Of a stretch of 64,000 nucleotides of DNA, positions 51,001 to 54,000 are shown piece after piece. The position numbers were made by a program. The first letter of the stretch is position 1. Each line of letters starts with the position of its first letter. This stretch comes from Escherichia coli (GTDB lineage: Bacteria; Pseudomonadota; Gammaproteobacteria; Enterobacterales; Enterobacteriaceae). Where the stretch lies: the NCBI RefSeq assembly GCF_965641715.1, contig NZ_OZ282453.1; one strand, written 5' to 3'.

Positions 51001-54000
51001 GTGCGGCAATCTGGTATTTCTTTGGTCCGGCACCGCAGATTGTCTATACCCTGGTGATTGCCACCACGGTGCTGATTATTGCCTGTCCGTGTGCGCTGGG
51101 GCTGGCGACGCCGATGTCGATTATTTCCGGCGTCGGGCGGGCGGCTGAGTTTGGCGTGCTGGTGCGGGACGCCGACGCGCTGCAACGCGCCAGTACACTC
51201 GATACCGTCGTGTTCGATAAAACCGGGACGCTGACCGAAGGGAAGCCGCAGGTTGTCGCAGTGAAAACATTTGCTGATTTTGACGAAGCGCAGGCGCTGC
51301 GTCTGGCGGCGGCACTGGAACAAGGTTCCAGCCATCCGCTGGCACGGGCGATCCTCGATAAAGCAAGCGATATGCAGCTGCCGCAGGTCAACGGTTTCCG
51401 CACATTGCGCGGGCTGGGCGTGAGCGGTGAAGCTGAAGGTCATGCGTTATTGCTGGGCAATCAGGCGCTGTTAAATGATCAGCAAGTCGATACTAAAGCG
51501 ATTGAAGCCGATATTTCAGCTCAGGCATCGCAAGGGGCAACGCCTGTGCTGCTGGCGGTTGACGGGAAAGCGGTAGCCCTGCTGGCTGTACGCGATCCGT
51601 TGCGTAGTGATAGCGTGGCGGCGCTGCAACGTCTGCATAAAGCGGGATATCGTCTGGTGATGTTGACCGGGGATAACCCAACCACCGCCAATGCGATCGC
51701 CAAAGAAGCAGGGATTGATGAAGTGATCGCCGGGGTGCTGCCAGACGGTAAAGCCGAAGCGATCAAACGTCTGCAAAGTGAAGGACGTCAGGTGGCAATG
51801 GTGGGCGACGGCATTAACGATGCGCCAGCGCTGGCCCAGGCGGATGTCGGCATTGCAATGGGCGGCGGCAGTGATGTTGCCATTGAAACCGCGGCGATTA
51901 CCCTGATGCGCCATAGCCTGATGGGCGTTGCGGATGCGCTCGCTATTTCCCGCGCAACGCTGCGCAACATGAAGCAGAACCTGCTCGGCGCGTTTATCTA
52001 CAACAGTATCGGTATTCCGGTCGCCGCCGGTATTTTGTGGCCGTTTACTGGAACACTGCTTAACCCGGTAGTTGCCGGAGCGGCAATGGCGCTCTCGTCG
52101 ATTACCGTAGTGAGTAACGCCAACCGGTTGCTGCGGTTTAAACCGAAGGAATAAGTACGTCATTGCGGATGCGCTGCTTTAGGGCGGCGCATTTGGCATC
52201 GACGCATGACTGCCGGATGCGGCGTGAACGCCTTATCCGGCCTACGGTTCAGGCACAGGTTTGTAGGCCTGATAAGACGCGTAAGCGTCGCATCAGGCAA
52301 TGGTGCTCGGATGCCGGATGCGGCGTAAACGCCTTATCCGGCCTACGGTTCAGGCACAAGTTTGTAGGCCTGATAAGACGCGTAAGCGTCGCATCAGGCA
52401 ATGGTACTCGGATGCCGGATGCGGCGTAAACGCCTTATCCGGCCTACGGTTCAGGCACAGGTTTGTAGGCCTGATAAGACGCGTAAGCGTCGCATCAGGC
52501 AATGGTACTCGGATGCCGGATGCGGCGTGAACGCCTTATCCGGCCTACGAGATGAAGCGATGTTTTGGCCTTACGCGACCTTTTTTGCACGCTCTTCACG
52601 GCGTGCCAAATATTCAGCCACTGTTTCAATCCGTCCCAATTCTTCCTGGGTGCGCATGTTGTTTTCAACTTCCCAAAGATCAACTGCTGCCTGGAGGTTT
52701 AGCCAAAAATCGACTGTGGTATCAAAAACTTTCGCCAGACGGAATGCCATCTCAGTGGTGAGTTTACGATTGTTATTGATCAGTGCACTGACGCTATTAC
52801 GATGAACATGCAGCAACTCTGCTAACTCATTGATTTTCAAATCTAGCGGTTCCAGATATTCATAGAGAAGAATATCTCCGGGTGTCGTCGGTTTTCTTGT
52901 TGCCTGTTTCATAGTTTTTAACTGTTGCTTCCCTGTGAATAGCGATACAAGAACATACTGAATCATACAAACACATTAAACAAGTCCCCAACTCCATTTG
53001 CGCCATCCCTCCCCGCGCGCTAGCATGATATTTCACAAAGGGAGGTCGTATGGATCTGTTGTACCGGGTAAAAACGCTTTGGGCCGCGCTGCGCGGTAAT
53101 CATTACTCCTGGCCTGCCATCGATATCACCCTCCCCGGCAATCGCCATTTTCATCTGATTGGCAGTATTCATATGGGTAGCCACGATATGGCTCCCCTGC
53201 CCGCCCGTTTGCTCAAAAAGCTCAAAAACGCCGATGCGCTGATCGTCGAGGCGGATGTTTCCACCAGCGATACGCCTTTTGCTAATTTGCCTGCCTGCGA
53301 GGCGCTGGAAGAGCGTATTAGCGAGGAGCAATTACAAAATCTGCAGCACATTAGCCAGGAGATGGGCATTTCTCCCTCACTCTTTTCTACCCAACCGCTG
53401 TGGCAAATCGCGATGGTTCTTCAGGCGACGCAGGCACAAAAACTGGGGCTGCGGGCAGAATACGGTATCGATTACCAGCTATTGCAGGCGGCGAAGCAAC
53501 AACATAAACCCGTGATTGAACTGGAAGGGGCGGAAAACCAGATTGCCATGTTGCTCCAGCTCCCTGACAAAGGACTGGCGCTGCTGGACGATACGCTGAC
53601 CCACTGGCATACCAACGCACGGTTGCTGCAACAAATGATGAGCTGGTGGCTGAATGCGCTGCCGCAAAATAATGAAATAACGCTGCCCAATACGTTCAGT
53701 CAGTCGCTGTACGATGTGCTGATGCATCAGCGAAATCTCGCCTGGCGGGATAAATTACGCGCCATGCCGCCGGGGCGATATGTGGTCGCGGTCGGTGCAC
53801 TACACCTGTATGGAGAAGGGAATTTGCCGCAAATGTTGCGCTAAAAAAATGGCCAATATCGCTATTGGCCCGTCAAAGAGGAATTTCATTTTTTTATTAT
53901 TATGCCGTCACTTTAAGCGACGGTGTAACTCGATTGTCGCTCAATCTCACCATCCTGCCAATACTCTTAGGCAAGATGACTCTTTTTTTTGGACCGCCAT

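Follow-up and report, generated by a model that had tools for sequence, protein, structure and literature searches.

A tandem BIME-2 array between the convergent genes copA and ybaQ of Escherichia coli and its variation in unit number among strains

The array in the copA-ybaQ spacer

The DNA analyzed here, referred to as the window, is a stretch of 64,000 nucleotides of the Escherichia coli contig NZ_OZ282453.1 (RefSeq assembly GCF_965641715.1). Its main subject is a tandem array of repetitive extragenic palindromes (REPs), of the kind known as bacterial interspersed mosaic elements (BIMEs), which lies between copA, encoding a Cu+ exporting P-type ATPase, and ybaQ, encoding a HigA-family antitoxin-like regulator. 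The original prediction placed the array downstream of copA, which is accurate as far as it goes, but the two genes are convergent and the array lies between both stop codons, downstream of ybaQ as well. The spacer measures 416 bp from stop codon to stop codon (52155-52570); within it the array starts 56 nt past the copA stop and ends 22 nt short of the ybaQ stop (52571-52573, minus strand). For ybaQ, the RefSeq coordinates were carried over from an allele of the same length in another genome. The features of the spacer and of related sites are collected in Table 1.

Tandem Repeats Finder reported one array only, at 52211-52549, with a period of 101 bp, 3.4 copies, 97% matches, no indels, and a score of 650. 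An independent seed-and-extend repeat search recovered three in-register copies at spacings of 101 and 101, and any two units differ from one another at only 1 to 3 of 101 positions. The window has 17 occurrences of the REP tail motif CTTATCMGGCCTAC, where 0.05 would be expected by chance, and 7 of them lie inside the array. These results together show that the tandem REP array is real and far beyond chance, and the repeat of about 101 bp that had been predicted after copA is thus borne out, with seven REPs. The predicted extent of 52160-52550 covers the array itself, but its start is too early because it takes in a separate hairpin at about 52164-52198.

Each 101-nt unit consists of a Y-type REP of 35 nt (TGCCGGATGCGGCGTRAACGCCTTATCCGGCCTAC on the plus strand), a linker of 17 nt (GGTTCAGGCACARGTTT), an inverted Z2-type REP of 37 nt, and a second linker of 12 nt (ATGGTRCTCGGA). 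Three full units and a closing Y make up the seven REPs, and their orientation alternates between plus and minus along the array. Compared with the reference sequences quoted by Durrant et al. 2024 (PMC11208160), two Y copies are identical to the reference Y, including that of unit 2, and the other two carry a single loop-base change. Against the reference Z2, the Z2 copies agree at 34 of 36 positions, with the two mismatches in the loop.

Table 1. Coordinates of the copA-ybaQ array, its flanking genes, and related features of the window
Feature	Position	Strand	Remarks
copA, Cu+ exporting P-type ATPase	49650-52154	+	834-aa open reading frame; stop TAA 52152-52154; RefSeq copA in K-12 and other genomes
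copA-proximal hairpin, GGATGCGCTGC-TTTAGG-GCGGCGCAT	~52164-52198		separate from the tandem array
Y-type REP 1, TGCCGGATGCGGCGTGAACGCCTTATCCGGCCTAC	52211-52245	+	reference Y except loop base G for A; -21.3 kcal/mol as RNA, -11.3 as DNA
Tail-to-tail linker (S position), GGTTCAGGCACAGGTTT	52246-52262		17 nt; no structure of its own
Z2-type REP 1, inverted, TGCCTGATGCGACGCTTACGCGTCTTATCAGGCCTAC on the minus strand	52263-52299	-	-21.9 kcal/mol as RNA, -12.9 as DNA
Head-to-head linker (s/l/r position), ATGGTGCTCGGA	52300-52311		12 nt; sole part of the unit departing from the Rfam naRNA4 consensus
Full unit 2	52312-52412		Y 52312-52346, S 52347-52363, Z2 52364-52400 (minus), linker 52401-52412
Full unit 3	52413-52513		Y 52413-52447, S 52448-52464, Z2 52465-52501 (minus), linker 52502-52513
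Closing Y-type REP (seventh REP)	52514-52548	+	final element of every REP-bearing allele at the locus
Spurious open reading frame, 88 aa	52163-52429	+	frame 2
Spurious open reading frame, 76 aa	52300-52530	+	frame 1
Spurious open reading frame, 134 aa	52401-52805	+	frame 0
Two spurious open reading frames, 50 aa each	52249-52401, 52350-52502	-	
Rfam naRNA4 (RF02564) matches, Y/Z2 head-to-head pairs	52266-52343, 52367-52444, 52468-52545	-	89.3, 88.4, and 86.2 bits
ybaQ, HigA-family antitoxin-like regulator	52571-52912	-	NCBIfam antidote_HigA, 104.7 bits; longest open reading frame reaches 52966
REP block	8791-9092		between mnmH (7100-8194) and ybbP (9108-11522)
REP pair	~17530-17617		directly after the 152-aa open reading frame at the ybbJ position (17079-17537)
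REP block	~59599-59682		between ybaL and gsk

The REP stems each contain an internal mismatch or bulge. Folded singly on either strand, the REPs give strong hairpins or potential cruciforms, with predicted energies of -21 to -22 kcal/mol as RNA and of -11 to -13 kcal/mol as DNA (z from -4 to -6). Adjacent inverted REPs can alternatively pair with each other to form an 84-nt hairpin of -27.6 kcal/mol as DNA. For the whole spacer, comparison with shuffled sequence gave folding z-scores of -10.4 on the plus strand and -9.7 on the minus strand.

The array also contains the natural target of IS621, a bridge-RNA recombinase (Durrant et al. 2024, PMC11208160). Exact copies of this target, ATCAGGCCTAC, are found on the minus strand at 52263-52273, 52364-52374, and 52465-52475, and others at 9063-9073 and 59599-59609. 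This makes the array's three Z2 REPs potential insertion sites for IS621.

Between the copA stop codon and the first true REP lies the separate hairpin mentioned above, which begins about 10 to 12 nt past the stop. The region 52155-52212 that contains it folds at -27.7 kcal/mol as RNA; as DNA the hairpin reaches -11.1 kcal/mol (z = -3.6). It is kept in every allele examined, including a REP-free allele, whose sequence diverges right after ...GGCGCAT, within the 3' arm of the hairpin. This arm resembles the end of a Z-type REP, with 12 of 15 positions shared between GCGGCGCATTTGGCA and GCGTCGCATCAGGCA in a local alignment. The hairpin may be a decayed REP or a native structure of the copA 3' end. 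Liang, Rudd and Deutscher reportedly found in 2015 that terminating ribosomes can be stalled by a REP lying no more than about 15 nt from the stop codon. The true REPs of the array lie beyond that range, 56 nt away on the copA side and 22 nt away on the ybaQ side.

Classification of the array as BIME-2

The nomenclature that Gilson, Bachellier, and Hofnung gave to BIMEs is restated by Ton-Hoang et al. 2012 (PMC3333891). BIME-1 has a single y/z1 pair of REPs and a long L linker, often with an IHF site, while BIME-2 varies in copy number from strain to strain, with tandem copies at one locus being well conserved (PMC3333891). The palindromes in the copA-ybaQ spacer are imperfect, 35 or 37 nt long, mismatched in the stem, and end in CTAC (or start with GTAG when read on the other strand), as REPs do. 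Y and Z2 REPs alternate in inverted orientation, and the Z2 copies are long and not of the Z1 type. The linkers, compared here by length, are short at 17 and 12 nt. The copies are in tandem, vary in number among strains at this locus, and are extragenic, lying at 3' ends between the convergent copA and ybaQ stops. By these sequence features, the array is a canonical E. coli BIME-2. It shares with the class the inverted Y/Z2 arrangement, the lengths of the linkers (short between the tails, 12 nt between the heads), the tandem repetition, the extragenic 3' position, and the variable copy number, and nothing essential sets it apart; the sequences of its 17- and 12-nt linkers are specific to the locus.

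The array is thus an already described kind of element, and the same element, one unit shorter, is found at this locus in K-12. The spacer between copA (b0484) and ybaQ (b0483) in K-12 MG1655 has the same flanks, proximal hairpin, unit sequence, and closing Y, but contains 2 units plus Y (5 REPs, 315-bp spacer) against 3 units plus Y in the window (7 REPs, 416-bp spacer), with a few single-base differences. The K-12 feature table (NC_000913.3) lists no repeat feature in the copA-ybaQ spacer.

Some BIMEs are associated with IHF, and the spacer could on that ground be read as a BIME-1 or RIP-type element that recruits this protein. BIME-1, RIP, and RIB elements do share with the array a Y and a Z-type REP in inverted orientation, but they have a Z1 REP, a single copy, and a long L linker with an IHF site, none of which is found at 52.2 kb, where the linkers are 17 and 12 nt, the partner of Y is Z2, and the units are in tandem. 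A scan of 52155-52570 for the IHF consensus WATCARNNNNTTR gave no match at either 0 or 1 mismatch. We therefore regard IHF binding and BIME-1 identity as refuted at the sequence level and such an element as very improbable here. The original prediction that arrays of this kind bind IHF and gyrase is correct for the class in general, but its IHF part does not extend to the copA-ybaQ array. Neither an intrinsic terminator (a hairpin followed by a T-run) nor a sigma-70-like promoter was found within the array, and both were dropped as candidates for elements inside it.

Open reading frames within the array

Three near-identical open reading frames (ORFs) of 76 to 88 aa had been predicted at 52163, 52300, and 52401 and put down to the array itself. 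ORFs do start at these positions, but their lengths are 88, 76, and 134 aa, and two more of 50 aa are present on the minus strand. The plus-strand ORFs fall in three frames because the period of 101 is not a multiple of 3 and shifts the frame by two per unit, and the third is longer since it continues antisense through ybaQ.

Open frames with ATG or TTG starts are what a real repeat-containing protein encoded by one or more of the 76- to 134-aa ORFs would present. However, the same peptide is repeated in three mutually overlapping frames, the ORFs of the array have no Pfam family match at E <= 1, and RefSeq annotates no coding sequence in the spacer in the six alleles examined, which carry 0 to 7 units. 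The 88-aa ORF has a skewed composition with 20% arginine, the 134-aa ORF is antisense to a gene, any gain or loss of a unit shifts the frame, and the sequence is wholly missing from 1,453 of 5,426 genomes. Protein coding was rejected on the overlapping frames, the blank Pfam search, and the RefSeq annotation, and its likelihood is negligible. The ORFs within the array are artefacts, as had been predicted. Beyond annotation hygiene, where it avoids three to five spurious ORF calls, the recognition of the array matters little.

Similarity of the units to naRNA4

The Rfam family naRNA4 (RF02564) matches the array three times, once for each head-to-head pair of Y and Z2 REPs. The matches run the full length of the model (1-77), above its gathering score of 59.5, and are better on the minus strand, which is the sense strand of ybaQ, than on the plus strand (61.6-63.6 bits). 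In the alignment both hairpins are close to consensus, and the 12-nt linker alone differs. The family was built on REP325, which consists of six Y/Z2 units between yjdM and yjdN and whose RNAs bind HU and aid nucleoid condensation (PMC4550694). About 80% of REPs are transcribed according to Qian et al. 2015 (PMC4550694), and HU together with a two-hairpin Y/Z2 RNA condenses DNA.

The three full-length matches at 86-89 bits on the minus strand and the findings of Qian et al. raise the possibility that the array serves as a cluster of genes for nucleoid-associated small RNAs like naRNA4. Transcripts reading through, above all those from ybaQ on the minus strand, would be processed to two-hairpin RNAs of about 77 nt, and these RNAs with HU would form bridges between cruciform-forming REPs and compact the nucleoid, as for REP325. 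REP325 is likewise a BIME-2-type Y/Z2 cluster, and the covariance model covers the copA-ybaQ units with both hairpins. It differs in its locus, in having six units, and in its linker, and transcription, processing, and HU binding have been shown for REP325 alone; the argument for copA-ybaQ is the model match, and the evidence on expression and HU binding belongs to the other cluster. The Rfam model is moreover essentially a Y/Z2 pair, which any BIME-2 passes. It also matches two other REP clusters of the window, at 8846-9024 and 59602-59679, so we take the matches as a renewed detection of the BIME-2 unit and not as a dedicated small RNA gene. The linker of 12 nt is unlike that of naRNA4, neither the array nor the sequence beside it showed a promoter, and the array is missing from many strains. 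A small RNA gene cluster at this locus is therefore unlikely.

Variation in unit number among E. coli genomes

The original prediction described arrays of this kind as recombination hotspots and proposed that unit number be compared across strains. A query of 901 bp that covers the spacer was searched by BLAST against 5,426 complete E. coli genomes, and representative loci were read base by base. BLAST joins the flanks whatever the number of units; exact counts are those of the empty site and of alleles with at least one unit, and the other frequencies come from a systematic sample of 60 rows. The spans of the matches fall into discrete classes separated by steps of exactly 101 bp, and the loci carry no REP, a single Y, or 1, 2, 3, or 7 full units.

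The empty site, in which the proximal hairpin is followed by 20 bp of unrelated sequence, gives a span of 542 bp and is found in Nissle 1917 and UTI89. It accounts for 14 of the 60 rows and for 1,453 of the 5,426 genomes (26.8%). A single Y REP (span 598 bp, strain 204446) is equally represented in the sample (14/60), or in about a quarter. One unit plus Y (699 bp, 12/60) is the allele of O157:H7, and two units plus Y (800 bp, 10/60) that of K-12. The form with three units plus Y (901 bp) found in the window and in Combat11I9 was seen in 2 of the 60 rows, and a form with seven units plus Y, amounting to 15 REPs, in one row (strain W619), where the span is longer and the flanks are not joined. 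At least one full unit (at least 80% query coverage) is present in 2,199 of the 5,426 genomes (40.5%). The three-unit form of the window is thus a minority allele.

The closest match in the collection has 99.1% identity to the query, and five of its eight mismatches lie inside the array. The equally long allele of Combat11I9 differs from the window at five array positions, and alleles of equal length are therefore not identical in sequence. Within the sample, K-12 derivatives all have two full units and O157:H7 strains all have one, which implies that change is slow relative to strain divergence within a lineage. The best matches at other E. coli loci are 83-88% identical, and the linkers of the array at 8.8-9.1 kb in the window differ from those between copA and ybaQ. 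This pattern fits amplification of a local unit and not repeated independent insertion.

The allelic series, with its empty site, indicates that the array is dispensable and that the site is recombination-prone, as had been expected, with changes in whole 101-bp steps. It also explains the length polymorphism, prone to assembly and alignment problems, at the copA/ybaQ junction. From an empty site to 15 REPs, the series is a clean natural case of BIME-2 expansion and contraction, a phenomenon already published (Ton-Hoang et al. 2012).

The change in unit number would most likely proceed by replication slippage or by unequal recombination between units that are 97-99% identical. The REP-associated transposase (RAYT, TnpA-REP) possibly helps in this; it binds and cleaves REPs in single-stranded BIMEs, and the same paper undertook to examine whether it recombines them in vitro (PMC3333891).

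In 6 of the 60 rows, or roughly 10%, only the copA end of the query is matched, and no span applies. In the one such locus that was read, that of Z0117EC0051, 428 bp of unrelated, very GC-rich DNA stand in place of ybaQ and the BIME, starting exactly at the copA stop (locus positions 2756-3183), and a similar arrangement may be present in roughly a tenth of E. coli. For this replacement sequence Rfam gave only a sub-threshold match (TwoAYGGAY, 31.5 bits against 43), and it was dropped.

Both REP-free spacers examined for this feature, those of Nissle 1917 and KOr019, come with a RelE/ParE-family toxin gene just upstream of ybaQ (locus positions 990-1142), which is intact in KOr019 and frameshifted in Nissle. 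The BIME-bearing window and K-12 have an orphan ybaQ that directly adjoins ybaP. Toxin loss and the occurrence of REPs may simply be two markers of the same lineages.

Possible roles of the array

The proposed role of the array at this locus draws on published work on BIME-2. BIME-2 is significantly enriched in gyrase cleavage sites, which fall mostly in Y REPs, and cleavage rises when transcription is blocked, so that BIME-2s behave as strong gyrase sites independent of transcription (PMC6379681). BIME-2 has also been implicated as a topological barrier to the diffusion of supercoils (PMC10592627). At the RNA level, the works of Higgins and of Espeli are cited in later papers for the stabilization of upstream mRNA by REPs and BIMEs and for attenuation of transcription.

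By analogy, the Y REPs of the copA-ybaQ array would be preferred sites of gyrase binding and cleavage, and the array would as a consequence act as a transcription-independent gyrase site or supercoil barrier. This buffer would be placed where the positive supercoils of converging copA and ybaQ transcription meet. In RNA, the hairpins would stand at the ends of read-through transcripts of both copA and ybaQ, where they would stop 3'-to-5' exonucleases and in part attenuate transcription that runs on into the opposing gene. Since many lineages do not have the array, any benefit at this locus would be modulatory and not essential.

Several points weigh against such a role. copA and ybaQ are absent from the available supplements of the gyrase Topo-Seq paper (PMC6379681), in which only a subset of BIME-2s is strongly cleaved, and a full-text literature search found no paper linking REPs to either gene. 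The array is absent from 26.8% of genomes, and about 10% more have no ybaQ at this place, which argues against an important locus-specific function and fits neutral or selfish DNA. The array could be selfish or neutral repeat DNA that has no function here, seeded once by REPs in part of the species and then changed by slippage and unequal crossing-over without selection. The polymorphism in both presence and copy number, from 0 to 15 REPs with 1,453 of 5,426 genomes REP-free, is what this would predict, and the uniform copy number within the sampled lineages resembles drift along lineages. Against this, the REPs have kept very nearly the genome-wide consensus sequence, the published BIME-2 class is bound and cleaved by gyrase and affects the fate of RNA, and neutrality at one locus is not a property that sequence alone can demonstrate. 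We consider neutral or selfish status at this locus the less probable case but a serious one, and it is compatible with the classification as BIME-2.

Taken as a whole, a BIME-2 array that would serve between copA and ybaQ as a gyrase site and supercoil buffer, and in RNA as a protector of 3' ends and an attenuator, is the best explanation of the data, and we put its probability at roughly 0.9. Recognition of the array also flags three natural target sites of IS621 and probable gyrase sites. It is improbable that the polymorphism of 0 to 15 REPs is itself functionally meaningful, with the array tuning copper-induced copA expression or local supercoiling between the two convergent units, and perhaps also giving rise to naRNA4-like HU-binding RNAs from ybaQ read-through. 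If it were, lineages would carry heritably different set-points.

Other features of the window

Similar REP blocks had been predicted at the mnmH/ybbP and ybbJ junctions, and both are present (Table 1). The name ybbJ comes from gene order, and the 152-aa ORF at this position (17079-17537) has no NCBIfam match. The block at 8791-9092 is an atypical BIME: after two Y-S-Z2 units and a Y it continues with an L-like linker of 35 nt and then a short Z1-type REP (linker and Z1 at 9028-9092). The L-like linker contains an exact IHF consensus, AATCAATATATTG, at 9040-9052, and Rfam ES036/CssrF has a match at 9028-9070.

Non-K-12 material adjoins both blocks. Next to the first, at about 8250-8770 in the spacer between mnmH and ybbP, lies what looks from its sequence like a type I toxin-antitoxin module of the dinQ/agrB kind. 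It includes a 27-aa ORF, MKTFLDKVLIVLKALIAQLELIRQFIE (8607-8690, plus strand), that matches NCBIfam toxin_DinQ at 39.6 bits (cutoff 30), and a match on the minus strand to the Rfam AgrB antisense RNA at 8256-8344 (53.6 bits, gathering score 40). The sequence AAAAAACCGACATGACAGTYGGTTT is present as a direct repeat, near 8258 and near 8737. The corresponding spacer of K-12 carries rhsD.

Next to the second block, an extra pair of ORFs at 17640-20107 lies between the REP pair and a 140-aa ORF at the cueR position, and K-12 has no genes there. One ORF (120 aa, minus strand) has no family match, and the other (579 aa, plus strand) has only weak coiled-coil or SMC-like matches.

Between ybaP and ybaK, a match to the small RNA sroB (ChiX) of 82.1 bits is found on the minus strand at 53843-53926, the same position as the chiX annotation of K-12. 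The region 20834-46823 contains an ORF of 6,929 aa (24576-45365, minus strand) flanked by ORFs of 720, 391, and 451 aa on the same strand. The layout resembles that of a giant repetitive adhesin accompanied by type I secretion genes, and K-12 lacks such a cluster in this neighbourhood.

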